A stretch of 63,731 nucleotides of DNA, the filler included, from Folioceros fuciformis (lineage: Eukaryota), in NCBI GenBank assembly GCA_049999805.1. It is 6 parts of 6 records of this genome, joined end to end, with 100 filler letters (N's around TTAATTAATTAA, not from the genome) between each part and the next. Parts side by side here need not be neighbours in the genome. Positions count along the whole stretch, not along the records: positions 31,060 to 40,720 come from JBNGIO010004559.1; 5 more parts are not named here. One strand, 5' to 3'. Positions within the stretch are counted from its first letter, which is position 1. Each line of letters starts with the position of its first letter. Below, in pieces: positions 5,122 through 38,445 of the stretch. A program made the position numbers and the translations under genes. Below the pieces are notes generated by a model. That model saw only the letters and a list, made by a program, of their open reading frames with translations, did no database searches and was not told where the DNA came from.

Positions 5122-8031
5122 TTACGGTCGACCCTCACAGCTGCACCAACCAGCTGTGAATCGATGCACACGGTACCCATCCCTTACAACAATGTCCCTC
5201 TTTTCAACCCTTGACATGATCTCCGTGGAACTGTGGCAGTCACTGCACATGCGCAGATTCTTTGTTACCACCAAAGGTGTGTCATTCGGAGTGTTCAAGA
5301 GACCAAACGCCAGGGCCAGCTTCTCAGCATGCCCGCAAAGCATGTCTTCCTTGTCCTTCTCAGACAGCGGCTTCAACACCAAATTTGTCTCTGGTACATG
5401 CCCGCCTTCCTGCTTCAGGCGTGCATTCGTGCTCGCTACCTTGGGCACAAGGTCATCTCTCCTTTCTCCCACCACAAACGTATGTACCTCCTTTTTCACC
5501 TCAATGCCCGCCACTGCAGGTTTTTTGCTAGCTCCTGCAACTATTCTCTGTCTTTCAATCCTATCTGCATCCGTCCACCTCCCTACGTCTGCGTAGGCAT
5601 TGGCCATGAGCACATATGCGGATGCACTGTGAGGCACCAGTTTAACAAGACTCCCAAAACACCGTGTCGCCCTCGCAATATCCCCGTGACTTTTGCAGGC
5701 GTTCAGCAAAGACGTCAAGCCCACAACATTACTTTGGCCCTCACATGATAATAGCATCTTCTCTGCCTCATCTAACTCGCCCGCGCGCCCAAGAAGGTCA
5801 ATCATGCAACTGTAATGCTCAATAGTAGGTTTGATGCCATGCTTTTCAGCCATGGATTCAAAGTGATTGCGACCCTCCTGCACCAGCCCCTGATGGCTGC
5901 AAGCCGTTAAAAGGCAAGTAAAAGTAGCATCATCAGGCCGAATACCGGCAACTAACATCTCCTCAAAGCAAGTTAGCGCGTTGTGACCTTCATCACAAGT
6001 ACCATATCCAGATATCATACTCGTCCATGTCACCACATCCTTTGTGGCCATACTGTAGAAAACCTGGCGTGCATCTTCCAGTTTACCGCATTTTGCATAC
6101 ATGTCCAGCAGGCAGTTTCCCACCATTACATCATCTAGCAGGTCTCTTTCCACAATCTGAGAGTGCAGCTCCCTACCCTTTTGTAAGGCACCAGCGGTTG
6201 CACAGGCCCTCAGAAGGCAAGCAAACGTAACACGATTACCCAGAACCAGGCCCTCCTGCTCCATCTGTCCATGCAGAACGAGCGCTTCGCGGCAAAGCCC
6301 GTGATTTGTGTAACCAGCTATGAGGGCAGTCCAAGTCACCACATTCTTGGTGGCCAAGCTGTCAAAAACCATGCGTGCCTCTTGCAGTTCGCCACATTTT
6401 GCATACATGTCGACTAGGGAGTTGCCCACCACTATATCGGATTCTAACAGCCCTCGTTCCACAATCTGTGAGTGCAGCTGCCTGCCCTTTTGTACATCAT
6501 CATTGCTAGCACAGGCCTTCAGAAGGCAAGCAAAAGTGACATGATCAGCGAGAACCAGGCCCCCTTGCTCCATTGTTCTATACAGAAGAAATGCCTCTTG
6601 ACTCAGCCCGTGATTTACATACCCAGCTACGAGCGAGTTCCATGTCACAACATCCTTCGTGGCCAAGCTGTCAAAAACCCTGCGTGCATCTTCCAGTTCA
6701 CCACATTTTGCATACATGTCGATCAGACAGTTCCCCACGAGAATCTTATCCAGCAGTCCTCTTTCCACAATCTGTGAGTGCAGCTGCCTGCCTGTCTGTA
6801 CGGCACCTGTGCATGCACAAGCCTTCAGAAGACTTGCAAATGTCACCTGGTCAGCCACAATCAGGCCCTCCTGCTCTATCTGTCCATACAGATCAAGCGC
6901 CTCCTGACCGAGCCCTTGCTGTGCATACCCAGAAATCAGGGCATTCCATGTCACCACATCCTTGGACGCCAAGCTGTCAAAAACCCGCCGTGCATCTTCT
7001 AGTTCACCACATTTTGCGTACATGTCCACGAGGCAGGTGCCGACAAAAAAGTTAAGAGCAACGCCACTGCGCAACACATCACTATGCACTTCTCTGCCAG
7101 ATTCCAAGTCGGCGGCAAATGCACATGCTTGAAGAGCAGCTGCAAAGACGTGACCATCCGCCTTCACATCCGAGCTCCGCATCTCACGATACAGCTGTAT
7201 GGCCTTCTTCGGTTTCCCACGTTTAGCATGTGCAGAGATAATGGAAAACCACATGAAGGCATCCGGTTTGCCAACCCTGGTGAACACACCCATGGCCTCC
7301 TGTAGCCTACCTCCTTGGGCATACATGCGCAAGATATGGTTCCCCAAGTATGCATTCGACTCGTACCCAAATCTGACAGTGAGATTATGAACTCGTCGCC
7401 CCACAACCAAATCATTCTTCGCTGTACACAGTTTGAGCACAGTGTACAACAAAGCTGGAGAAATGGGACAGCCTATCTGCGCCATAGACTCCAATGCTCC
7501 AACGGCCTCAACCAGCTTCCCCTGATTACACAGCGTGCTCACAGCTCCAGGAGTCACGACGTCCATTTCCGACCCTGCATGCCTGCCAAGCTCAGGCCTT
7601 CCCGTAGGACTCGACTGGGAAGGAGCCACACTGTGACCCATCTTCGTATCCAGAGAACCGAGCTGTTCATCCACCCAAGCTGGCTTCAATATATTGTTTA
7701 ACCACAGGACCTCTCCCCCAGAGGAGCCCTTACGACGCAAGTCAGGCGCACGGGAGCTCTTCTTATCTCGTCTATTGTCCCGCCACATCGTCGGGTACGG
7801 AAACAAATTTTGCCGCAGGAGTTCCTGTTCCTGGTGACGACCGTCGCTGGAAAATCGTCTCCTCAGACCTGGAAGTGCTGGGGTCCTTCCACAGCTGCAT
7901 CTGGAGGCTTGGTTGATCCCCAGCGGTTCACTCCTTACGCAAATGTGTTGAGCGGGAGATCCTCCAAAAATCCATGTGCACTCCCCAACTTGTTGAATCC
8001 ACACTGGACCCGGTTGCCACGATTTGGCCAT
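5122..8031 (-). CDS. PLS-class PPR protein with E1/E2 and DYW:KP (GRP-type) deaminase-like domain plus one N-terminal OSB-type PDF motif; candidate organellar U-to-C RNA editing factor (969 aa, intronless)
   Basis: Repeated P-L-S motifs (VVTWNALISGYAQQG..., LVDMYAKCGELEDARRVFD). P2-L2-S2 block (HYSCMIDLLGRAGELDEA). C-terminal domain starts KKPAVAGIEV, contains HAEKLALAFGL and CSDCH, and ends CSCEGRP. RRRFSS near residue 60 resembles a mitochondrial presequence cleavage motif. Confidence 0.95.
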   Translation of the reverse strand: MAKSWQPGPVWIQQVGECTWIFGGSPAQHICVRSEPLGINQASRCSCGRTPALPGLRRRFSSDGRHQEQELLRQNLFPYPTMWRDNRRDKKSSRAPDLRRKGSSGGEVLWLNNILKPAWVDEQLGSLDTKMGHSVAPSQSSPTGRPELGRHAGSEMDVVTPGAVSTLCNQGKLVEAVGALESMAQIGCPISPALLYTVLKLCTAKNDLVVGRRVHNLTVRFGYESNAYLGNHILRMYAQGGRLQEAMGVFTRVGKPDAFMWFSIISAHAKRGKPKKAIQLYREMRSSDVKADGHVFAAALQACAFAADLESGREVHSDVLRSGVALNFFVGTCLVDMYAKCGELEDARRVFDSLASKDVVTWNALISGYAQQGLGQEALDLYGQIEQEGLIVADQVTFASLLKACACTGAVQTGRQLHSQIVERGLLDKILVGNCLIDMYAKCGELEDARRVFDSLATKDVVTWNSLVAGYVNHGLSQEAFLLYRTMEQGGLVLADHVTFACLLKACASNDDVQKGRQLHSQIVERGLLESDIVVGNSLVDMYAKCGELQEARMVFDSLATKNVVTWTALIAGYTNHGLCREALVLHGQMEQEGLVLGNRVTFACLLRACATAGALQKGRELHSQIVERDLLDDVMVGNCLLDMYAKCGKLEDARQVFYSMATKDVVTWTSMISGYGTCDEGHNALTCFEEMLVAGIRPDDATFTCLLTACSHQGLVQEGRNHFESMAEKHGIKPTIEHYSCMIDLLGRAGELDEAEKMLLSCEGQSNVVGLTSLLNACKSHGDIARATRCFGSLVKLVPHSASAYVLMANAYADVGRWTDADRIERQRIVAGASKKPAVAGIEVKKEVHTFVVGERRDDLVPKVASTNARLKQEGGHVPETNLVLKPLSEKDKEDMLCGHAEKLALAFGLLNTPNDTPLVVTKNLRMCSDCHSSTEIMSRVEKRDIVVRDGYRVHRFTAGWCSCEGRP

Positions 8032-15313: not shown

Positions 15314-18300
15314 TTATACCAGCACACCGTCAGTCACAGGCTTGATACCCAGCCGATGACTCAAATGCCCATTTTGCGAAAGAGGGCTTCCACTCATGTG
15401 TATGCTCCTTTGTCCGCTCGACGCATTCCCATCCTTCGAAGCTTGCTCGACGTGGCCATTTTGTGAATCTTTAGCGCGCATGGCTTCCTCCCATGTTTTC
15501 TGCATGAATTCCCTAGTGACTGCTTCCCTGCCACTTCCGTTATGAGATCCGTGGAGCAGAACAGGAGCACTAAGAGCTGACTCTTTCACGTTGCCACCCT
15601 CTGATGAGTGACGGGTTGCCGAAGAGTCTCTCTCTACCTTGCCTGTTCTGCACCACTTCCCTTCTGCGTCCACTTTCATTTTTCCTGGGCCCCATGTCAT
15701 TGCATCTTCTCCAAGCCAGTACTCCCGACTGTAGCCATTCAGGCCCGAGTGGTAAGCGGCCTTAGGCTGCCCGGCGAGCTCGTCTTCCTTGCTTTCTCCA
15801 TTGCCCGCCTCACTATAGATCTCCACATGTGAATTTCCGGGCGCCTCGTTCACATCCTGAATACAGTGGGCTTCTTCCATGTACCCTTTGGAATACTCCG
15901 TGGAAAGGTGCTTGTCTGCACATGCGTGGTCTGCATTGCTCCTCGCACCAGCTTCTGAGTTGGATAGTGTATTGAGTTCCGTACATCTGGTGGAACTTGA
16001 ATCCCTGGCGTACTTGGCTGAAATAGGGGCTCTCCCCCTTGGAGATCCGTTCTCACTCATATCACGGCTAGAGCCTCTCGTATGGCCTCTCGTATGAACC
16101 TCTTTGAAGGGACAATTTTCCCTTGTCACCATGATGTCCTTGGTATGCCCATTCTCCTTGGCATGCCCTTTCTCCCTGGCATGCCCTTTCTCCCTGGCAT
16201 GCCCGTTCTCCTTGGCAAGCCCACTCTCCCTGCCATGCCCGTTCTCCTTGGCAAGCCCATTCTCCCTGCCATGCCCGTTCGCCTTGGCAAGCCCCTTCTC
16301 CTTGGCATGCCCATCCTCCGTAACAACCCCCTTCTCCTTGGCATGCCCATTCTCCGTGACAACCCCCTTCTCCTTGGCATGACCGTTCTCCGTTGCATAC
16401 CCACCCTCCTTCACACTTCCATTCCCCTTGACAAGCCCAATCTGCTTCACATGCACGCTATCCTTGGAGAGGCTGCTTTCTTTGATATGCCTTTTCTCTT
16501 CCTTAGCATGCGCATTGTCCTTATATTGACCGTTCATCTTGACATGACCGTTCATCTTGACATGACCGTTCTCCTCCTTGGCATGACCGTTCTCTCCTTG
16601 GGCATGGCCATTCTCCTTACCGTGCACACAGTCCTTGCACTGACCGTTCATCTTGACATGGCCGTTCTCTTCTTGGGCATGGCCAGTCTCCTTGCCGTGC
16701 ACACAGTCCTTGTACTGACCGTTCATCTTGACATGGCCGTTCTCTTCCTTCGCATGCCCATTCTCCTCGGCATGCCAACGGTTCTCCTCGCCATATCCCC
16801 CGTTCTCATTGGCGTGACTTCCGTTCTCCCTAGGATGACCCACGTTCTCCCTAGGATGACCCCCGTTCTCCCTAGGATGACCCCCGTTCTCCTTAGCATG
16901 GAACCCTGTCTCCTTGGCGTGCCCCCTCTCATTCGAATGACCGTTTGGCAAGGCGTGCCCGTTCTCCTTAACATGCCCGTTCTCCTTGGCATGCCCATTT
17001 TCCTTTGCGTACCCTTTCTCCGTGGCAAACCCATTGCCGTTGGCGTGCCCATTCTCTTTCACGTACACGTGACCATAGCCATTTCCACGTTGAGATGCCT
17101 CATGTTTGGTAGCAAACACCGCCTTTCCTACAAAAGGACTTACCGCAGTACAAGCCATTGAGAGGGTGCTTGCTATTTGGCTCGTGTCTAGCTGCCCAGA
17201 TGCAGCCCGGATCAACCCTGTAACACACAGCCCCAAACGGAGAACCTTGCTGATGAGTAAAATTGTCCATCAACAAGACGTACGAGGAAAAGATTCCCTT
17301 AAGCAAAACACACCTAGGAAAGGTGCAGAAGGATGGCCCGGCCGTGAATTGAATTCAGGATGAAACTGGACACCTACATAAAATGGATGACCTGAAAGCT
17401 CAATAATCTGGACACAAGTGCAATAGTCAGCTGATTGCGATCCAAGGCGAGTATCGACTATGCAGAAACCACTGCAAAAACATATGCCTTCGGACCTCCA
17501 TCCGCTGACCCGACTCGTCTTTGCCCACAAATTGAAGGCCCGCATTCTCTAGACTGTCCACCAACTCAGGATTGACCTGAGCAGAGAATGAAGCCGAGTG
17601 AACTGCCTGCCAACAAAAGAGTAATGCTATGTAGGGTAGATGGCAATGTCAAGGATTCCACAATACCTCATATCTATGGCGATGACGCTCATCCACGTAC
17701 TTTTGCTGCTTCTGATCATCATAGAACAGATTGTTCTCATACCTACAGACCCATACAGCATAACTAGTCATTAACAAGGAAGAGCTATCTTGACAATTGT
17801 AATACACAGTTTTGGCTTGGCATTGATGGACAACAAGATAAGCCATGACGAAACTCACAGCCTTGAAATCTTGGAGTCAGGCTTTTGAATGTAGGTCCTC
17901 CGAGCTCCCAACCTCATGGTCCCACCCATTTGAGTAGTCGAGTGCTGCAGAAATCCTGAGAGTTTAGTGGACAAAAGCAGACAGCATACCATGTGATTGT
18001 CTGCCACAGTCCAGGAACCAAGTACTAGGAGTTTGCGTTGCGCTAGTAGATACCTCTGGCATGGATATAATGCATGGGTGTGCGGCTGACTCATCGAATT
18101 CAGTGCTGTTTGCATTTGCCAAGCCCAGAACCTGCAAACACATCCGTCAGCAGCCATCTCAGAATTGAGCAGTAAGACTGTATGAAGCGTCAGTCTACCC
18201 AATTGGTTTCCTGCAGCAACGAAGAAACAATGCATGTTCACTTACTGATCGAGCAAATTCAATCACTGCAACTTGCATCCCGAGACAGATGCCCAAGAAA

Positions 18301-21182: not shown

Positions 21183-21282
21183 NNNNNNNNNNNNNNNNNN
21201 NNNNNNNNNNNNNNNNNNNNNNNNNNTTAATTAATTAANNNNNNNNNNNNNNNNNNNNNNNNNNNNNNNNNNNNNNNNNNNN
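21183..21282. other. Artificial contig linker (N44-TTAATTAATTAA-N44); identical linkers at 30960-31059, 40721-40820, 55236-55335 and 61982-62081
   Basis: The same 12-mer with stops in all six frames is centred in a 100-nt N block five times. Confidence 0.97.
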
Positions 21283-26876: not shown

Positions 26877-29800
26877 AAGGCTGCGAGTCCTCCTAGAAGA
26901 GGAGGGCGGGCTACTTGGAGGCCTAGTGCTGTGTCCGGTGTTTAAAATTGACCCTTGCTTTGGCTTCTAACTACATGGTTCTGCCCCACCCCTTCAACGG
27001 GGTGTTACTTGTTGCGGGGTGTTACTTGTTGGTATCAGACGGGGTGTTACTTGTTGGTATCAGACGGGGTGTTACTTGTTGGTATCAGAGCATAGGTTGG
27101 TGCTTGGGCTATGCCTTGAGAGCATGTGTAGCCCTCCTCTTCATGGGCTATNNNNNNNNNNAGCCCTCCTCTTCATGGGCTATGCCTTGAGAGCATGTGT
27201 AGCCCTCCGCTTCAAGGCTGCGAGTCCTCCTAGAAGAGGAGGGCGGGCTACTTGGAGGCCTAGTGCTGTGTCCGGTGTTTAAAACTGACCCTTGCTTTGG
27301 CTTCTAACTGCATGGTTCTGCCCCACCCCGTTGAAGGGGGTGTTACTTGTTGGTATCAGAGCATAGGTTGGTGCTTGGGCTATGCCTTGAGAGCATGTGT
27401 TGCTTGGGCTGTGAGAGCACATGAAAGGTGATTTGAATAAAGAGCAGCAGCAAGGGTGCTGGCTGCGAGTCCTCTTAGAAGAGGAGGGCGGGCTCCTTGG
27501 AGGCCTAGTGCTGTGTCCGGTGTTTAAAACTGACCCTTGCTTTGGCTTCTAACTGCATGATTCTGCCCCACCCCGTTGAAGGGGGTGTTACTTGTTGGTA
27601 TCAGAGCATAAGTTGAAGCATCCTTGACTAGTACGCTAGTTAACGATGGCAGATCCTGCTGAGCCAGGCAGAGCAGAGAGGGTGCGCCGCAGGAAGGATA
27701 AGGCCCCGCTTACCGAAGCCGTTGCGGAAGAGCCACAGGCGGATCCTCAAGTCGTGAGAACGACGAAGGAAGGAACTTCGGAGCAAAGGACCGGTACCAC
27801 CATAGAGGATCAGCTCCAAAAAATCATGAGGAGCCTTGATGCTCTAGATTAAGAGATCAAAGGCAAACGTAGGCTCGTTGAAGAAGAGCCAGAAGAAGTG
27901 GAGCCCGAGCCTGAGATCAGTGCTCCTAAGAACGCCAAGAAGTTGAGATTGAGTGTTCCTGCGCCTAAGAGTTACAAAGGTGAGCGTGACGTAGAGAAAA
28001 TCAGTTCTTGGTTTTTCTCTTTGGAAGCGTACTTGGAATCATGCGAAGTGCCGCAAGACGAGTACTTGAAACACGTCACGAACTTCTTGGACGAGTATGC
28101 TCTTACTTGGTGGAGGACTTACGTAGAGAACGTAAGGCAAGGCAATCGTAGAGCAACAATCTTCACATGGGCAGACTTCAAGGAAGCGCTGCAACTTCGT
28201 TTCCAACCAGCTAATGCTGTGAGTTTGGCGCGAAGGATGCTCGACAATGTCAAGCATACTCGAATTTTGCGGGAGTATATGAGTGAATTTAGCTCTATTG
28301 TCTTGCAATGTCCTGAGATGCATGAGCAGGACAAACTCCACAAGTTTACTATTGGCCTTAAGAGATGGGCTCAAAACAGGATTGCATTGACTAATCCTCA
28401 GACGTTGCAAGAGGCTATAGCAGCAGCAAATGCCATACCGGACGTGTTTGTCCAGGAGGCTCCAATCTTGAGGGGGAGATATCCTAGATCTCAAAGTAGA
28501 TCTAGAGGCAAAGGACGAGCCACCACCATTGGGAACAGTGCAACTACTGAGACTACTGCCAGAAGCCGGGGTAGAGGTGATAACAGGAGTCGTGGAAGAC
28601 GACGTGCAGCGCCTACCTCTGGTGTATGTTATAGTTGTGGAGAGCAGGGACATTTTGCTAGAAACTGTCCACATGTAGGAGCTCCCAACTTGAATCTAGT
28701 TGCCGCAAATCTACCTGTTCCTAGAGCCAGGATCCAAGAGCTCCCTGAAGAGTCTAGGTGACGCCAGGGGCCACGTGTTGTGAGGACATGTGGTGAGTCA
28801 TTGAGTGACAAGGATGTCACTATTTCCATGACCTGATGGAGACTTGATGTATATATGTGGCAAGATCAATGGCTTGGATGTTGAGCTATTGTTAGATTCT
28901 GCAGCCACCCATAATTTTTTGACTCCACGTAAGGCAAGAGAGCTTGGCCTTGATTGGACTGAAACTTCCACACCATATAGAATCAAGCAAGCTAAAGGAA
29001 CTCTGCAATTTTCTAAGTGAATTGCATGGAGTAAAGCTGCAAGTTGATGCGTGGCAAGGAAGTGTGAGTTTTACAATCATGGAAATGGATGACCATGATA
29101 TCGTCCTAGGTCTGGAGTGGTTGAGATCTAATGAAGTGCAAATGGATGTTAAGTCACGCACTATCGAGATATCCAGAAAGCACAAAGTGAGTTGTGCTAG
29201 TAGTAGCTAGAGGCTTGAGAGCGTATCAGTACAGCTGATTACAAAAAAAGAGCTCAAGAAAGACCTTAGGAAAAAGAAGGAGTTATACTTGCTTGTACTC
29301 CAAGGACTAGAGGATGGTCTGGAAGAAGATTCCATAGAGGAGAAGGACATCCCAAAAGAAGTACAAGCTGTACTAGATGAGTTCAAGGACTTGATGCCAT
29401 ATGAGTTGCCACCATTGCCGTCTCGCAGAGTTGTGGATCATGAAATTGAGTTGAGGCCAGGGAGTACACCTCCTTCGAGAGCACCATATAGATTGTCACA
29501 AGACGAGTTGCAAGAACTCAAGCGACAACTATCCAACTTGTTGGCAAAGGGATATGTTAGAGTTTCTAAGTCTCCCTTTGGTGCGCCTGTGTTATTCACA
29601 CGCAAAAAGAATGGAGGACTTAGATTGTGTCTGGATTATAGAGCTTTAAACCAGATCACAATCAAGAATGCATATCCTTTGCCAAGAATGGACAACATGT
29701 TTGACAGGTTGAAGGGTGCCAAGTATTTCACCAAGCTAGACTTGATGGCAAGGTACTATTAGATCAGGATTGTTGAGGGGCATGAGTACAAAACAGCATG

Positions 29801-30959
29801 TAGAACAAGGTATGGATCTTTTGAGTTCCTTGTCATGCCATTTGGACTTACTAACGCACCTGCTACATTTCAGACTCTTATGAATACTATATTCTGTTAG
29901 AGTTTTCTAGAGCGGAGAGCTTGAGAAAATCAGAACAATGGTAGGCAAAAAAATAATACATTACAATTAACAAAAATGTTTAAATACGTAAGTAAAGTGT
30001 CTCTTCATATTAGGGCTAATTAATCAAGGCTAATTATGGTAAATATATTATCAACCCTAATCTAATGACGTGGTTACCAAGACCTAGTAGGTCTCTTAAC
30101 ATATTCATAGATCTGGTGGACAAGTGTGTTGTAATCTATTTGGATGACATTTTGATCTATAGTCATACCTTGGAGGAACATGTTGAACNNNNNNNNNNNN
30201 NNNNNNNNNNNNNNNNNNNNNNNNNNNNNNNNNNNNNNNNNNNNNNNNNNNNNNNNNNNNNNNNNNNNNNNNNNNNNNNNNNNNNNNNCAGAGACTAAGA
30301 GAGAATTCTTTGTTCTTGGCAATCAAGAAGTGTGACTTTGTCAAGACAGAAATTCCATTCTTAGGTTTCGTTGTCTTTGCCGAGGGCATCAGGATGGATC
30401 CTGATAAAGTTAAGGCCATTCAAGATTGGCAGCCCCCTTGAAACATTCATGAGGTGCGAAGTTTTATGGGTTTGGCTTCTGTTTACAGGAAGTTTGTAGC
30501 AGCCCCCATAACTGACCTCTTCAAGACAGTAAAAGCTTGGAAATGGGATACTGAGTGTCAAGCAGCCTTTGAATGCTTGAAGAAGAAGTTGAGCACGACT
30601 CTGGTGTTGGGAATGTATGACCCCAAGAGAGATGTGGAAGTGTATTGTGATGCCTCAGATGTGGCTATAGGTGGAGTTTTGATGCAGGACCAAAAGCCAT
30701 TAGCTTTTGAGTCAGGAAAGTTGCATCCTTATGAGAGGAAGTATCCCACCTATGAGAAGGAAATGACTGTTGTCATCCACTGTCTGAAGGCTTGGAGACA
30801 CTATCTCTTGGGCAGGTGTTTTGTGTTGTATACTGATAATATCAGCACGACGTACTTCTCAAACCAGTTGAAGTTGAATGCGAGGCAAGCTAGATGGCAA
30901 GATTTCCTAGCTATGTATGACGTGACTCTAAGATATAAACCTGGAAAAGAGAATAAGGT
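26877..30959 (+). mobile_element. Decayed Ty3/Gypsy LTR retrotransposon (LTR end/PBS, gag, protease, RT, RNase H), truncated by contig end
   Basis: PBS TGGTATCAGAGC (tRNA-iMet type). Gag 27646-28761 with an internal stop and zinc knuckle CYSCGEQGHFARNC. Protease LLDSAATHNF near 28890. RT motifs [24 protein letters not shown] and YLDD (about 30137). RNase H CDASDVAIGGVL. RT-RNase H directly after protease is Gypsy order. Confidence 0.92.
29895..30101. mobile_element. Solo LTR (207 bp) inserted in the Gypsy RT coding sequence
   Basis: Termini TGTTA...TAACA. Flanked by a perfect 5-bp TSD TATTC (29890-29894 and 30102-30106). Removing it rejoins RT as TLMNTIF/IDLVDKCVVIYLDD. Confidence 0.85.
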
Positions 30960-31473
30960 NNNNNNNNNNNNNNNNNNNNNNNNNNNNNNNNNNNNNNNNN
31001 NNNTTAATTAATTAANNNNNNNNNNNNNNNNNNNNNNNNNNNNNNNNNNNNNNNNNNNNGTTCATGTGTGGTATCCACCAACATCTCTCCAACGTACACG
31101 AAAATGCGAGGCTTAAAAAAACCATGCCCAGTGATCGTGAGATGTAGACCAAACATGATTGAGCGTCCCACCCTTCATTCATTTCCTGTGACATTCATTG
31201 TGTATTTCCCACGTTCAGACCTCAGAATCGCTCCGTCCTCACTTGCAACCAACTCGCTTTCATCCCCTTTGTCTCCTGTTCACCGCACGACGTAACGCGG
31301 TAAGGGAAACTGCATTCCGGTCTGAGTATGCATCTCTGAGAGTAAGACAGCTGAGCTGGATAAGTATGAGCGATGAGTGTGCTGGTCTTGGAGTTAATCA
31401 ATCCCTCTCACCCTCTAGAAGGAAAGGGTTTTTCTCACGCGTGTACACTTTGGCACTGATCAGTTCACTGTCC

Positions 31474-34400
31474 TCACGGTCGACCTCTGCAACTGCAAGA
31501 ACCAGCTGCGAATCGATGCACACGGTACCCATCTCTTACAACAATGTCTCTCTGTTCAAGCCTTGACATGATCTCCGTGGACCTGTGGCAGTCACTGCAC
31601 ATGCGTAGATTTTTTGTTACCACCAGAGGTGTCCCACTCGGAGTGTTCAAGAGACCAAACGCCAGAGCTAGCTTCTCAGCATGCCCACAAAGCGCATCTT
31701 CCTTTTCTTTCTCACACAGTGGCTTCAACACCAACTTCGTGTGAGGTACGTGGCCCCCTTCTTGCTTCAAACGTGCATTTGTGCTCTCTACCTTGAAAGC
31801 AATATCCTTTCTCCTTTCCCCGACCAAAAATCTATGTATCTGCTTATTCACCTCAATGCTCGCCACTGCAGCTTTCTTGTTAGCTCCTGCTGCCATTCTC
31901 TGTGTTTCAATCCTGTCTACATCAGTCCACCTACCCGCATCTGCATAGGCATTCGCCATGAGCACATACGCAGACGCGTTTTGAGGGTCCTGCTTAACAA
32001 TGCTTTCAAAACACCACATCGCCCTCTCTATATCCCCGTGGCTTTTGCAGGCATTCAAAAAGGACGTCAAGCCCACAACATCAATTGGCCCCTTACATGA
32101 CAACAGCATCTTCTCTGCCTCATCTAAACGGCCTGCACGCCCAAGAAGATCAATCATGCAATTGTAATGCTCAAGAGTAGGGATAACGCCATGCTGTTCA
32201 GCCATGGAATCGAAATACTTGCAACCCTCGTCAACCAGCTCCTCATGACTGCATGCCGCAAGAAGGCAAGTAAAAGTAACATCATCAGGGTGAATACCAG
32301 CAACTAACATCTCCTCAAAACAAGCTAGTGCCCTGTGACCTTCATCACAAGCACCGTACCCAGATATCAGGGCATTCCATGTAACCACGTCCTTTGTAGC
32401 CATGCTGTCAAAAACCTGGCGGGCGTCTTCCAGAACACCACATTTTGAATACATGTCCACCAGACAGTTGCCCAACGTTATGTTAGCAAGCAGTCCTCTT
32501 TCTACAATTTGTGAGTGCAGCTGCCTGCCCTTCTGTAAGGCACCCGCGCTCGCACAGGCATTCAAAAGACAAACAAAAGTAACATCATTCGCCACGAGCA
32601 GGCCCTCTTGCTCCATTAGTCCATATAGTACAAGCGCCTCTTGGCTGAGTCCTTGCTGTGCATACCCAGCAATCAGCGCTGTCCATGTCACCACATCCTT
32701 TGTGGCCAAGCTTTCGAAAACCTGGCGTGCAACTTCCAGTTCACCACATTTTGCATACATGTCCACCAGGCAATTGCCCAACACTACATCAGCGAGCAGT
32801 CCCCTTTGGACAATCTGTGAGTGCAGCTGCCTGCCCCTCTGTAACGAACCACTGCTTGCACAAGCCTTGAGAAGGCAAGAAAAAGTAAAATGGTCAGCCA
32901 AAATGTGACCTTCCTGCTCCATTTGTCCATACAAAACAAGCGCCTCTTGGCCGAGTCCTTGCTGTGCATACCCAGCAATTAATGTCGTCCAAGTCACCAC
33001 ATCCTTTCTGGTCAAGCTTTCAAAAACCTGACGTGCATCTTCCAGCTCGCCACATTTTGAATACCCAGCTATCAAAGCATTCCATGTCACCACATTCTTC
33101 GTGTTCATGCTATCAAAAACCTGGCGCGCGTCCTTCAGTTCACCACACTTTGAATACATATCCACCAGGCAGGTACCAACAAACAAGTTAAGAGGAATGC
33201 CGCTGTGCAACACATCACTGTGCACTCTTCTGCCAGATTCCAAGTCGGTGGCAAACGCACAAGCTTGAAGGGCAGCTACAAAGACGTAAGCATCCGCCTT
33301 CACTCCTGACCTACGCATCTCATGATACAATTTTATAGCCTCATTGGGTTCCCCGTGCTTAGCATATGCAGAGATTATCGAAAACCACATGAAGGTATCT
33401 GGTTTCCTCACCTTGGTGAACACATCCATGGCCTCCTGCAACCTATTTCCAATTGCATACATGCGCAGGATATGGTTCCCCAAGTACACACTCGACTCGT
33501 ACCCAAGTCTGACAGTGAGATCATGAACTCGTCGACCCATAGCTAGATCCCTCTTGGCTGTACACAGTTTCAGCACAGTGTGAAACAGAGACTGAGAAAT
33601 ACCACAACCTAACTGCGCCAAAGATTCCAGGGCTCCAACGGCCTCAGAAAGCTTCCCCTGGCGACATAACATGCTCACGGTTCCAGCAGTTACGACGCCC
33701 ATTCCCGATCCTTCACGCCTACCAGGTTCAGGCTCATTCGGAACGCTGGACTTGAAAGATGAGGCACCATGGCCCATCTGCATATCCAACGAAAGGAGCT
33801 GCTCATCAACCCAAGCTGGCTTGTTGTTTAACCACAAGGCCTCGCCGGACCCCTTACGCCGGAAGTCAGGAATACGGGAGCTTTTCTTATCTCGTCTATT
33901 ATCCCACCACAAGGCAGGGTCCAGAAAAAATTGATGCCACAAGTCCTCCTGCGCCTGGCGACTACCGTCTCTGGGTGACTCGTACCCGCCCACGAATTTT
34001 CTCGGAAGTGGAAGTGCTGGGCTCCCCACACTGCTGCACATTGTGCCCATTTCCAATCCTGCACGCCTGCCACGATCCAGCTTATCCGGGGAGCTCACCC
34101 TGGACGGAGAGGCACCACGACCCGTTTGTGTATCCAAGGAAACGAGCTGCTCATCAACCCAAGCTGGCTTATTGATGCTATTTAACCACAAGACCTCCCC
34201 GGACCCCTTACGCCGGAAATCAGGCGAACGGGAGCTCTTGGTATCTAGTCTGTTGTCCCACCGCATGGTTGGGTGCAGAAAAAAATGTTGCCACAAGTGC
34301 TCCTCCTCCCGGCGAGAACCATCCCTGGATATCCAATCCCCACCCAGACAGCTTTCCGGATTTGGAACTGATGGGCACCCTACTCTTCTGCACCTGGAGA

Positions 34401-34521
34401 CTTGATTGTACGCCGGAAGTTGACTCTCTGAAGCGATGTGAGCGGGTATTCCTGGTGGAATCCCTGCAGGCACACAACGTCGTTGTGTCCACGACCGTTC
34501 CGGTTGCCATACTCCGGCCAT
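31474..34521 (-). CDS. PLS-class PPR protein with E1/E2 and DYW:KP (GRP-type) domain plus two N-terminal OSB-type PDF motifs; candidate U-to-C editing factor (1015 aa from ATG 34521, intronless)
   Basis: Paralog of 5122-8031. ATG at 34521 (MAGVWQPERSW) aligns with MAKSWQPGPVW, whereas the ORF-track start at 34557 is a TTG. Contains a PLS array and KKAAVASIEV...HAEKLALAFGL...CSDCH...CSCRGRP. Confidence 0.95.
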   Translation of the reverse strand: MAGVWQPERSWTQRRCVPAGIPPGIPAHIASESQLPAYNQVSRCRRVGCPSVPNPESCLGGDWISRDGSRREEEHLWQHFFLHPTMRWDNRLDTKSSRSPDFRRKGSGEVLWLNSINKPAWVDEQLVSLDTQTGRGASPSRVSSPDKLDRGRRAGLEMGTMCSSVGSPALPLPRKFVGGYESPRDGSRQAQEDLWHQFFLDPALWWDNRRDKKSSRIPDFRRKGSGEALWLNNKPAWVDEQLLSLDMQMGHGASSFKSSVPNEPEPGRREGSGMGVVTAGTVSMLCRQGKLSEAVGALESLAQLGCGISQSLFHTVLKLCTAKRDLAMGRRVHDLTVRLGYESSVYLGNHILRMYAIGNRLQEAMDVFTKVRKPDTFMWFSIISAYAKHGEPNEAIKLYHEMRRSGVKADAYVFVAALQACAFATDLESGRRVHSDVLHSGIPLNLFVGTCLVDMYSKCGELKDARQVFDSMNTKNVVTWNALIAGYSKCGELEDARQVFESLTRKDVVTWTTLIAGYAQQGLGQEALVLYGQMEQEGHILADHFTFSCLLKACASSGSLQRGRQLHSQIVQRGLLADVVLGNCLVDMYAKCGELEVARQVFESLATKDVVTWTALIAGYAQQGLSQEALVLYGLMEQEGLLVANDVTFVCLLNACASAGALQKGRQLHSQIVERGLLANITLGNCLVDMYSKCGVLEDARQVFDSMATKDVVTWNALISGYGACDEGHRALACFEEMLVAGIHPDDVTFTCLLAACSHEELVDEGCKYFDSMAEQHGVIPTLEHYNCMIDLLGRAGRLDEAEKMLLSCKGPIDVVGLTSFLNACKSHGDIERAMWCFESIVKQDPQNASAYVLMANAYADAGRWTDVDRIETQRMAAGANKKAAVASIEVNKQIHRFLVGERRKDIAFKVESTNARLKQEGGHVPHTKLVLKPLCEKEKEDALCGHAEKLALAFGLLNTPSGTPLVVTKNLRMCSDCHRSTEIMSRLEQRDIVVRDGYRVHRFAAGSCSCRGRP

Positions 34522-34964
34522 CGTCCTGGGACCGCTGTTGGACAGCGAGTCCGACAACAGAGAACACTACGGCCGACATCTATGGCCTGGTGCAAAAGTA
34601 CTGCACACTTTCGCCCGCCATGCACATTCTTTGATAACATTGGCGAGAATGTGAAAGCTCTTACAGGCATTTCAGGTCTGGGAACCTTTCGATGTGCTGC
34701 ACTGGGCTGTTGCCCTATTCCGTTTAGTGATATAGCGCCCATGACATTAATGGGGAGTTAGTCCTCCTTGCCCCAATCTTAACCACTCATTTCTTAATCC
34801 AACCAAAAAGGTTATGGACTTACCAAGCTTCTCGGTCCTCGAGGAAGGGGCGTGTCTCTCTAGCCTCCCCCTCTGAATGCTCAAATGTGCCTTCCTTGTC
34901 TATCCATTCACGTTTTACTAGGCTTATGCTACGAGTATGGGGAAATCTTTTATGCTAGGGGTCG

Positions 34965-35082: not shown

Positions 35083-36369
35083 TTGTCCAAGTAGCTGTAG
35101 CTAATAGGAAGGAAGTATGCAGTGCATGGACTAAAACTTGGAGTGCCTATCCAACAAGATTTGTCTAAGGTGCATTCAACAACCTCATCTATAGCACCAA
35201 GTGTGCTTTTCAACTAGCTGAAGTGCCACAACAATTTTTGCAGCATAACTAGCTACCGCTTAATAGTAGAACCCCCCCAAGATACTCATCTATTGCATTG
35301 AAGATATAATTTTTCAACCTGGCCAAAGTGCTACAATAACTCTAGCAACACAACTAGCTAGATGCCGGTTTAGTGTGCCTTATTAGTGGCCCTTCCTATC
35401 CAGGACAAGAGTACGTGTTGATGGCCTGCATGTTCCTACACCTGTGGGCAACCCCAAGATCACTGCAAGTGGATCTCCTTGATATAGCAATTACTAGGAC
35501 ATGAGAGTGCATGAGCTTGGGGCTGGGCGCTTGGCCGTCCATCTCTTTGGCTTCTCTTGAAAAATGCAGGAGAATCCTTGTTCTACATAGTTTAAGGCAC
35601 TTTGACCCTCAATGTTACGTGGAGGAGCATTTTCGTGTTCGACATAAGATCTCTTTTATCCCCTCTCAACGTAATCAAATTCTGTGGATTCTTTCTGCCC
35701 TGAACACCAATTATGAACAATTCAACATGGGTGGACGGGTTGGCATTAACACTTTTGGTTTAACGGGCTGAGGTAGATTTGGGCGAAAATCTATTGGGAG
35801 GATGTGCCTTCGGCATTGTACTACAGTCTCCAGTGTTGATTTCATAGGTAGTCGACGCATGTATCCCTCCCTCCCTTGGGAGGAGGACAGACTCGGGAGC
35901 GCGAGGCGCCAGTGCAAAATTGCCTGCCCACCAGCGGCACGTGCGGGGAAGGAATAAACCTAGTGAGGTTCTTGGGAATCTGACATGACGTAGCTATTGC
36001 ATTTCATAGCTACCTAGCTAGGTAGGTATTGGTACAATGTACAACACGTCTTTGATGGAAATATCTTCTTACATAAAACGAAGAGAGAGAGAGAGTAGGA
36101 GTGGGAAGGGCGATCGTGGGTGCACTGAGGGAGAGCGTGCTTGCACTTCTGGCAGCGCTCTCACCAGGCTGTCGCTCGCGGCCAGGGGAGGGGAGCGCTT
36201 GACTTGTGCATCAAGCTAGGGCGACTGGCTTTCCCCTTGTCCCGGAGATCTCGCCTTTGGGTGTCAGCAGAAGTGGAAAGGAGAGGGACTCACTTTCGAG
36301 CACGCTCGCGAGCCGTGGAGGCTGCCCCCGGAGTGGTGTGCGGGTCTTACGACAGGAGGTGATTTGATC

Positions 36370-38445
36370 ATGGCTGCTACCGCTGCCCTCAAGTCGCAGG
36401 CCGTGGCCGCGGCGGCCAGGCCTCAGCTTGCGTGCCCTTGGCACGAGCAGAAGCTGGCCTCCAGCGCTGCCTGTGGAGCTTACGGTGGGAGGTCAGCATG
36501 GTGCGGCAAGGTGTCCTCCCGCCACACCGGATTGCGGGTTTCCCCGGCGGTGAGGGGCAGGGTGGTGCGGATGCAGGTGAGCACGGCGGCCCCAGGGCCC
36601 TCCGGAACCCTGTCCCAGGCCTTGGACGTGAGGGCGAAGCCGACGGTTTTGGTGGCGGAGAAGCTAGGGGAGGCGGGGATCGGGCTGCTGCGTAAGTTTG
36701 CCAACGTGGACTGCGCCTACAACCTGTCGCAGGAGGAGCTTTGCGCCAAGATTTCGCTTGTGGATGCCCTGGTGGTGCGCAGCGCCACGAAGGTGACGAG
36801 GGAGGTATTCGAGGCGGCCCAGGGTCGCCTCAAGGTGGTGGGCAGGGCCGGGGTGGGCATCGACAACGTGGATTTGCAGGCCGCCACGGAGGTGGGGTGT
36901 TTGGTGGTGAACGCTCCCACCGCCAACACCGTCGCCGCTGCTGAGCATGGCATTGCTCTCCTGGCCGCGCTGGCCCGCAACATCCCTCAGGCCAACGCTG
37001 CCCTCAAAGCCGGTGAGAGGACTGGGCGCCATGCCCTTGCTTCTGCTTGCCGTGTTTGTTTTTTGCTGTGCATCTCCAGCGGTTTGATGCGGATGCCGTG
37101 GAGGTGGCAGGCAAGTGGCAGAGGAACAAGTACGTTGGGGTGTCGCTGGTGGACAAGACGCTGGCGGTGATGGGGTTCGGGAAGGTGGGTTCGGAGGTGG
37201 CGCGGCGGGCCAAGGGGCTGGGCATGGTGGTAATCGCGCATGACCCGTACGCGGTGGCGGACCGGGCGCGGGCCATCGGGGTGGACCTGGTGTCGTTCGA
37301 TGAGGCCTTGGCCAGGGCGGACTTCATCTCGCTGCACATGCCGCTCACAGCCTCCACCGACAAGATCTTCAACGACCTGACGCTGGCCAAGGTGAAGCCC
37401 GGGGTGCGCATCGTGAACGTGGCTAGGGGAGGGGTGATCGACGAGCCGGCGCTCATCCGGGCGCTGGACAGCGGGTTGGTGGCGCAGGCGGCGCTGGACG
37501 TGTTCACGGACGAGCCACCCAAGGCCGGGGACCCGCTGGTGGCTCACGAGCAGGTGATTGTGACTCCTCACCTTGGGGCCAGCACGGCGGAGGCCCAGGA
37601 GGGCGTGGCGGTAGAGATTGCGGAGGCGGTCGTGGGGGCCCTCCAGGGTGAGCTCTCCTCCACGGCGGTGAACGCGCCCATGGTGGCTCCCGAGGTGCTC
37701 TCTGCTCTGCATCCCTACGTGATTCTGGCGGACAAGCTCGGCAGGCTGGCGGNNNNNNNNNNNNNNNNNNNNNNNNNNNNNNNNNNNNNNNNNNNNNNNN
37801 NNNNNNNNNNNNNNNNNNNNNNNNNNNNNNNNNNNNNNNNNNNNNNNNNNNNAGGATGTCACAGCCGTTTACAGGGGGCCACGGCAGGAGGGCATGCCGG
37901 ATGTGGATACCCGGCTACTGCGGGCGATGATCGTCAAGGGGCTGGTGGAGCCTGTGTCCAGCTCCTTCATCAACCTGGTGAATGCCGACTACGTGGCCAA
38001 GCAGCGGGGGCTGCGTGTCACCGAGGAGTTCCAGCCCTCTGCCAACGGGGCCACGGAGGGGCCGCTGGAGAGCATTGGGATTCGCATCCGCAACGTGCAG
38101 TCTAACTTCGGGAGCGCCATCTCCGACTCCGGGGACATCACGCTTGAGGGGAAGATCAGGGCCGGGGTGCCTCACCTCTCGCTGGTGGGGAACTTCAGTG
38201 TTGATATCAGCCTGGAGGGCAGCATCATTCTGTGCCGTCAGGTGGATCAACCGGGCATGATCGGGAAGGTGGGTAGTTTGCTGGGCCAGGAGAATGTGAA
38301 CATCAGCTTCATGAGCGTCAGCAGGATTTCCCCGCGCCAGCAGGCGGTCATGGCCATTGGCGTCGACGAGGCTCCGAACAAGCAGGTTCTTGACAAGATC
38401 GGCAGCGTTCCCGCCATCGAAGAATTTGTCTTCCTCAGCCTATGA
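36370..38445 (+). CDS. PGDH: Plastid D-3-phosphoglycerate dehydrogenase (phosphorylated serine pathway); intron 37013-37110; contains an assembly gap
   Basis: Ala/Ser/Arg-rich transit peptide, then KPTVLVAEKLGEAG, VVGRAGVGIDNVDL, NAPTANTVAAAEH, GFGKVGSEVA (NAD-binding), VNVARGG, TPHLGASTAEAQ and a C-terminal ACT domain DQPGMIGKVGSLLGQENVNISFMSV. Confidence 0.95.

Follow-up and report, generated by a model that had tools for sequence, protein, structure and literature searches.

OSB-type PDF motifs ahead of the PPR array in a putative DYW:KP editing factor encoded in Folioceros fuciformis DNA

Editing factors of the pentatricopeptide repeat (PPR)-DYW type usually consist of a targeting peptide, an RNA-reading array and a catalytic domain, and the DYW:KP class is credited with organellar U-to-C RNA editing. 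DYW:KP domains are 132-133 amino acids (aa) long, with a conserved Lys88 that is required for U-to-C editing, according to the available text of PMC11845758; M92 is typical of the KP type, and the hornwort KP subgroups DRH and GRP take their names from the last three residues of the protein, as given in the accessible part of PMC9478123. The organellar single-stranded DNA (ssDNA)-binding proteins of the OSB family carry instead the PDF motif, described in the text available from PMC6963530 as a 50-aa motif lying C-terminal to the OB-fold; according to the same source the PDF of AtOSB1 alone suffices for ssDNA binding, and AtOSB2 is a tetramer. Both AtOSB1 and AtOSB2 prefer ssDNA over double-stranded DNA or RNA (PMC4166229, available part). 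Here we describe a gene, called gene A, in which PDF motifs and a PPR-DYW:KP protein are joined in a single reading frame. It lies in a stretch of 63,731 nucleotides of Folioceros fuciformis DNA (assembly GCA_049999805.1; six parts joined end to end), which as a whole is termed the window, and all positions given are those of the window. Its features are the following.

31474..34521, minus strand: gene A (protein P0001), a complete open reading frame of 1015 codons plus stop, running presequence, PDF, linker, PDF, linker, PLS PPR array, E motif, DYW:KP (GRP) domain.
34312..34521, minus strand: presequence, residues 1-70, predicted disordered, with a predicted local distance difference test score (pLDDT) below 50 for residues 1-66.
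34132..34311, minus strand: PDF domain 1 (PDF1), residues 71-130, scoring 92.6 bits against a 20-motif PDF hidden Markov model (HMM).
33958..34131, minus strand: linker 1, residues 131-188, rich in G, S, R and P, with residues 136-186 predicted disordered.
33784..33957, minus strand: PDF domain 2 (PDF2), residues 189-246, scoring 91.9 bits against the same 20-motif PDF HMM.
33685..33783, minus strand: linker 2, residues 247-279, with residues 250-274 predicted disordered and the first PPR helix starting at about residue 279.
31876..33684, minus strand: PLS-class PPR array and E motif, residues 280-882, with Pfam matches.
31477..31875, minus strand: DYW:KP deaminase-like domain of 133 aa, starting KA, with GHAE and K88-NLR-M92-CSDCH, and ending GRP.
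33697-34039 against 34045-34393: the tandem DNA duplication behind the two PDF units, with a spacing of 348-354 nucleotides (nt) and 76-77% identity.

An in-frame stop lies 15 codons ahead of the first ATG of gene A (34521), and both PDFs are found downstream of that ATG, in frame with the PPR-DYW part; since the stop-to-stop frame opens only 15 codons upstream, 34521 is the first possible ATG. The two motif peptides that an earlier, sequence-only reading had reported ahead of the PPR array are both present, letter for letter, in the translation of 31474-34521 (minus strand). The positions it had assigned to them fit as well, apart from the 3' limit at 33735, which runs some 50-60 nt past the second motif. 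Pfam searches of the protein gave strong matches to PPR (E 5.2e-83), PPR_2 (E 9.9e-82), E_motif (E 3e-13, residues 828-890) and the DYW deaminase family PF14432 (E 2.6e-31, residues 923-1013), and no match above cut-off in residues 1-280. Gene A is best explained as an intact nuclear gene whose product is a PPR protein of the PLS-E-DYW:KP kind (GRP-type), in which, almost certainly as far as the architecture goes, two translated PDFs stand between the presequence and the PPR tract. The presequence would be an organelle-targeting peptide, and the DYW:KP GRP features suggest a nuclear, hornwort-like origin of the DNA. As judged from the repeat in the DNA, the two PDFs arose by tandem duplication of about 350 bp.

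The assignment of the motifs to the OSB-type PDF, also proposed by the sequence-only reading, is borne out by matches to OSB4, by profile searches and by the conserved columns. In a search of 5.8 billion proteins, the 207-aa PDF stretch of gene A matches "protein OSB4, chloroplastic" of Tarenaya (P0003) with E 6.8e-14; the same stretch matches P0004, which has 278 aa and a single PDF behind a Pfam SSB domain, with E 2.5e-9. In pairwise BLASTP both gene A PDFs align with the two PDFs of the Tarenaya OSB4 (E 8e-15). A profile built from seven motifs finds 774 proteins at E <= 1e-3. Among the best 120 of these, the named entries are mostly OSB1-4 or "organellar single-stranded DNA binding protein", and the Pfam entries are PF00436 (SSB), barring P0029 and P0053, which have PPR families, and P0056, which has PF27682; algal matches among those listed come from Ulva, Astrephomene and a eukprot record labelled PRCOL. 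Against a representative library of 1.84 billion sequences the seven-motif profile gives 1263 matches at E <= 1e-3, 568 at <= 1e-10 and 84 at <= 1e-30. An alignment of 20 PDF sequences has ten invariant columns (P14, D19, N20, R21, P30, D31, K35, W42, P47 and W49), and PDF2 of gene A retains all ten along with 13 of the 13 nearly invariant ones, while in PDF1 an R replaces the first W of WWDNR. Pfam-A has nothing above cut-off over the PDFs of two named OSB proteins, of a 13-PDF protein or of the gene A stretch; without a PDF model in Pfam, architecture surveys built on Pfam domains would therefore miss a PDF-PPR fusion. A metagenome scan with a single PDF motif returned 204 pattern matches, none of which was confirmed. 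When both motifs were run by tblastn over the whole window, three copies were found (E 7e-23 to 6e-24, the next best match being at E 0.53), two of them in gene A and the third, at 7833-7648, in a paralogue, gene B.

5122..8031, minus strand: gene B, paralogue of gene A, 969 codons, with presequence, one PDF, PLS-E and DYW:KP (starting KP and ending GRP).
7648..7833, minus strand: the single PDF of gene B, scoring 78.4 bits, with LW changed to LR, WW to WR and PDF to PDL, and with a 2-residue insertion.

The two genes are about 75% identical in the PPR-E part and 81% in the DYW domain, and they share the first ATG and the residues following it (MA..WQP); in window coordinates they lie 23 kb apart. 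Relative to gene B, gene A is missing about 72 residues in frame, roughly an L plus an S motif, near residues 470-490 (window about 33050-33110, minus strand). At the joint, "...WNALIAGY" abuts "SKCGELEDARQVF" directly, as expected of an unequal crossover between repeats.

In gene A, gene B and a 950-aa protein from another assembly, P0005, setting the K of KNLRMC as residue 88 makes the domain exactly 133 aa long to the C-terminus and places an M at 92. All three also have GHAE and CSDCH, that is, the HxE and CxxCH zinc-site motifs, and the C-terminal triplet GRP. The domain starts with the name-giving KP in gene B and P0005 and with KA in gene A; given its 133 aa, K88, M92, GHAE, CSDCH and GRP end, gene A has been filed as a GRP-type DYW:KP protein. 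The PDF-PPR-DYW:KP architecture that the sequence-only reading had put forward is found as claimed, with the motifs in the same open reading frame ahead of PLS-E-DYW and the DYW domain of the KP kind, GRP subgroup, and the product is a putative U-to-C editing factor. In its PLS array, E motif and 133-aa DYW domain with HAE, K88, M92, CxDCH and GRP end it resembles the hornwort DYW:KP GRP proteins, including the designer proteins KP2 and KP3 (PMC9478123, available part). It differs from them in starting the domain with KA and in having PDFs ahead of the PPR array, which find no mention in the available text of PMC9478123 and PMC11845758. With the OSB family it shares the same PDF of about 55 residues, with invariant P, DNR, PD, K, W, P and W and in one to several copies; unlike in that family, the PDFs lie at the N-terminal instead of the C-terminal end, have a PPR array and a DYW:KP domain behind them and are not accompanied by an OB-fold or SSB-like domain.

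PF00436 gives no match at E <= 1 on the gene A protein, bearing in mind that the OB-fold of true OSBs itself scores weakly in Pfam (18 bits in P0003), and in the AlphaFold2 model nothing but the PDFs is folded before residue 279. Lacking an OB-fold, the gene A protein shares the PDF module with OSB proteins and is therefore not itself an OSB family member. AlphaFold2, given PDF2 alone with the 20-sequence alignment, returns a model with a mean pLDDT of 92.6 and a predicted template modelling score of 0.74, comprising a helix at 2-12, strands at 17-19 and 32-34, a 2-residue bridge at 40-41 and a second helix at 48-57. When residues 1-420 are modelled together, order is limited to the two PDFs and to PPR helices from residue 279; pLDDT is 58-80 in PDF1 and 82-90 in PDF2, and is below 50 for residues 1-66, 136-186 and 250-274. 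In these models the ordered elements follow the presequence like beads on a string, the two PDFs being separated by a linker of some 50 aa and the second PDF standing some 25 aa ahead of the PPR solenoid. Foldseek with the PDF model finds no match at E <= 0.001, and VIA-align returns 27 of 48161 chains at Z >= 2, the best of them only 2.8, so no fold has been assigned and the predicted PDF fold has no convincing solved look-alike. Matches in the PDB of linker 1 to TPR-like designs were set aside as spurious, being repeat-driven and individually insignificant.

A fold with no solved look-alike tying it to nucleic-acid binding leaves some room for the idea that the PDFs serve protein contacts, whether between copies of the protein itself or with OSB, Whirly or another protein of the nucleoid or editosome. 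The tetrameric state of AtOSB2 speaks for this, but the available text of PMC6963530 does not ascribe the tetramer to the PDF, and the AtOSB1 PDF is enough by itself for ssDNA binding in the same account; the invariant W, F, R and K are moreover what a single-strand binder might be expected to keep. We regard this explanation as very unlikely.

Fusions of this kind are not limited to the window. Similarity to PPR proteins was detected in six of the 246 PDF proteins examined, a sample that draws on the best 120 and the best 150 profile matches, which favours multi-PDF proteins and is not a census. In all six, the PDF or PDFs, a linker and the first PPR motif follow one another in that order. 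Besides genes A and B they are these.

P0005, 950 aa, from another assembly: one PDF, PLS-E and DYW:KP ending GRP.
P0029, 1371 aa: three PDFs and a PLS-E array without DYW.
P0053 (KAJ7539790.1, from the lycophyte Diphasiastrum complanatum): three PDFs and a PLS array, the model ending in the E motif.
P0181 (KAI5061374.1, from the fern Adiantum capillus-veneris): two PDFs and a short, irregular PPR part.

The two named records, KAJ7539790.1 and KAI5061374.1, are annotated merely as hypothetical or PPR-containing proteins. Because the single-PDF protein P0005 falls outside the listed matches, there may be further PPR proteins with one PDF beyond these listings. The tie to DYW:KP implied by the sequence-only reading did not hold up: just three of the six PDF-PPR proteins (gene A, gene B and P0005) are DYW:KP (GRP), and on these sequences the fusion is not confined to DYW:KP. 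It recurs in three early land-plant lineages, being present in hornwort-like, lycophyte and fern sequences. As to whether it originated once or several times, the tree made from 72 PDF copies of the six PPR proteins and 24 of the 240 others (leaving out copies that cover fewer than 49 profile positions, among them the second copy of P0181) is too poorly resolved, with none of 200 bootstrap trees showing the PPR-linked copies as one group; three changes of the PPR label are needed on this tree, of which well-supported branches force only one. In three sequencing runs (X2, X3 and X6, at 88% likeness) thousands of short paralogue fragments lie over gene A, with a depth of 10-25 contigs at the PDF positions 33873 and 34191 against 84-105 at the DYW position 31872, which suggests, weakly, that related organisms have more than one copy of PDF-coding sequence.

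The PDFs of genes A and B have been compared with the rest of the two proteins by the ratio of nonsynonymous to synonymous rates (dN/dS, by the NG86 method), where A1 and A2 stand for the first and second PDF of gene A and B for gene B or its PDF, and by identity to P0005.

PDF, A2 against B: 55 codons, dN/dS 0.26.
PDF, A1 against B: 57 codons, dN/dS 0.20.
PDF, A1 against A2: 55 codons, dN/dS 0.35.
PPR array, A against B: 605 codons, dN/dS 0.23.
DYW, A against B: 132 codons, dN/dS 0.26.
Flanking linkers: 23-44 codons, dN/dS 0.42-0.74.
Identity to P0005: PDF 60%, PPR-E 61%, DYW 74%, linker 20%.
Identity to P0005, presequence: 38% of 37 aligned positions.

With dN/dS and identity on a par with the PPR array while the linkers drift, the PDF behaves like a working domain. 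These figures bear on the thought that the PDFs lie outside the working protein altogether, either because translation starts at a downstream Met (for example residue 275 or 285) or because the N-terminal 250-280 residues are removed on import. In-frame Met codons do occur at residues 247, 249, 275 and 285, but selection in the PDF region is purifying at the protein level and the predicted fold is conserved there; the first ATG and the MA..WQP start are common to genes A and B, and in five separate sequences the reading frame continues unbroken for some 275 codons ahead of the PPR part. Such a truncated product seems scarcely probable.

The reading that we favour is that the PDFs are a kept accessory module that would bind single-stranded nucleic acid without sequence specificity. 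The favoured ligand would be single-stranded organellar DNA, as shown for OSB proteins; through PDFs bound to it the editing factor would stay at the nucleoid or at the transcription bubble, and the PPR tract would then meet its RNA target while that RNA is being made. That the PDFs form a working single-strand-binding accessory module, whichever the ligand, we consider likely. The reading as a whole, in which a working module, an ssDNA ligand and tethering to the nucleoid or transcription bubble are combined, is more tentative, quite possible but short of probable.

Several observations weigh against it. The dN/dS values of the PDFs rest on just 55-57 codons. Conserved aromatic residues have been lost, one W having changed to R in PDF1 of gene A and two W to R and an F to L in the PDF of gene B, and in its protein context PDF1 is folded with lower confidence than PDF2; these losses and the weaker fold of PDF1 fit relaxed constraint on some copies. 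The PDFs might also be cleaved off with the presequence. None of the runs recorded as RNA contains gene A; one run of guessed kind, X1, possibly DNA, has error-free contigs over 33841-34160 and 34210-34685 and none from 34688 on, which shows neither transcription nor a 5' end. Finally, since PPR tracts bind RNA with their N-terminus toward the 5' side, a PDF at that end is in just as good a position to contact RNA, and the sequence does not favour ssDNA.

The lost aromatic residues are also what would be expected if the PDFs were a relic, an OSB gene piece captured once 5' of a PPR gene, spread by retroposition or duplication and by now neutral or decaying. The PDF copy number of one to three among the relatives can be read in the same way, as can the retrotransposon fragments around the genes in the window and the in-frame loss of about 72 PPR-array residues from gene A, a loss which indicates that the locus may be drifting. 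On the other hand, a decaying relic sits poorly with a PDF dN/dS of 0.20-0.35, which matches the values for PPR and DYW and is lower than in the linkers, or with an identity to P0005 of 60% in the PDF against 20% in the linker; PDF2 retains all of its conserved columns, and no break of the frame occurs in gene A, gene B, P0005, P0029 or P0053. Decay of this sort is quite unlikely in our estimate, if not to the degree of the two explanations dealt with above.

A stronger competitor is that the PDFs are a built-in, unspecific RNA clamp lying 5' of the PPR footprint, raising affinity or keeping the target single-stranded; this would make them a cis-acting counterpart of the trans-acting MORF, ORRM and OZ helpers in seed-plant editosomes. 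Their placement on flexible linkers at the end of the PPR tract that faces the 5' RNA suits such a role, and the conservation of the PDFs supports it just as well as it supports DNA binding; the preference of OSB1 and OSB2 for ssDNA over RNA, as given in the available part of PMC4166229, runs counter to it. On balance the RNA clamp is less probable than not, but only a little behind the tethering to ssDNA that we prefer.

The OSB-like proteins found in the profile searches include three with nine to 13 PDFs, P0124 (1160 aa), P0126 (908 aa) and P0125 (719 aa); this exceeds the one to five PDFs in published accounts, as far as the available portions of these go, and in P0124 the majority of the PDFs stand ahead of the SSB-like domain. 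Two other candidates for new architectures have not been counted, P0135 (1526 aa, an OSB part with a kinesin motor) and P0056 (1063 aa, a PDF-bearing OSB part with a protein named ICR2), both of which are probably merged gene models.

Elsewhere in the window the following have been noted.

27853-28761 and 30466-31011, plus strand: Ty3/gypsy retrotransposon fragments, comprising gag with a zinc knuckle and a reverse transcriptase RNase H-like domain; they lie at lower window coordinates than gene A, that is, on its 3' side in the window, and are broken by runs of N.
36220-38105, plus strand: a D-isomer-specific 2-hydroxyacid dehydrogenase gene, its catalytic and NAD-binding domains spread over two overlapping frames, implying an intron or a frameshift.
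15314-17269: long open frames on both strands, of 651 aa on the minus strand (no Pfam match) and 379 aa on the plus strand.
2843-2942, 21183-21282 and 30189-30288, for example: runs of N, of which there are 20 in the window, either 100 bases or 10 bases long or in pairs of 44 bases each, with 12 bases between the two; they look like assembly gaps or masked stretches, and none falls within gene A or gene B.

The PDF module and DYW:KP proteins are each already known; it is their combination, or that of PDFs with PPR tracts more generally, that is apparently undescribed. The nearest published parallels are the RRM-PPR, RRM-DYW, MORF-RRM and RanBP2-Znf fusions of a 2026 kingdom-wide survey of editing-factor fusions (PMC13386178), in which an extra nucleic-acid-binding module is likewise carried in cis with the organellar editing machinery; the module in gene A differs in being a PDF, which is outside the four hallmark domains of that survey, and the main text of the survey mentions neither OSB nor single-stranded DNA. 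Conversely, the main text of a 2026 survey of OSB evolution (PMC13393729) has no mention of PPR, pentatricopeptide or hornwort. The Anthoceros angustus genome paper mentions neither OSB nor DYW, and among the papers that use "PDF motif" in connection with plant organelles none treats PPR architecture. The sequence-only reading was aware of no prior description of the fusion, and in the full-text literature, which leaves supplements and most subscription papers outside its coverage, we likewise found none that links PDF or OSB to PPR.

At its widest, the proposal would be that PLS editing factors of the lineages with U-to-C editing (hornworts, lycophytes and ferns) include a class anchored by PDFs on organellar ssDNA, at nucleoids, transcription bubbles or R-loops, which edits co-transcriptionally, U-to-C editing included, as a built-in substitute for the helpers of seed plants, and which at the far end might give DYW:KP domains access to ssDNA. 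This generalization we hold to be rather unlikely as it stands, and for DYW:KP acting on DNA itself nothing in the present data offers support. The fusion itself adds to an editing factor a second, independent predicted nucleic-acid-binding domain in cis, one drawn from the organellar DNA-maintenance machinery. The PDF fold is worth solving, given that it has no solved look-alike. The designer DYW:KP editors KP2, KP3 and KP6 were built from the PLS array onward, according to the available text of PMC9478123, which makes the PDF an obvious design variable. For the biology of these plants, the fusion gives a handle on where and when early land-plant editing factors encounter their substrate, which might be at the nucleoid, on RNA still being transcribed, or unattached in the stroma or matrix, and it bears on how early land plants do without the helpers that seed plants use.

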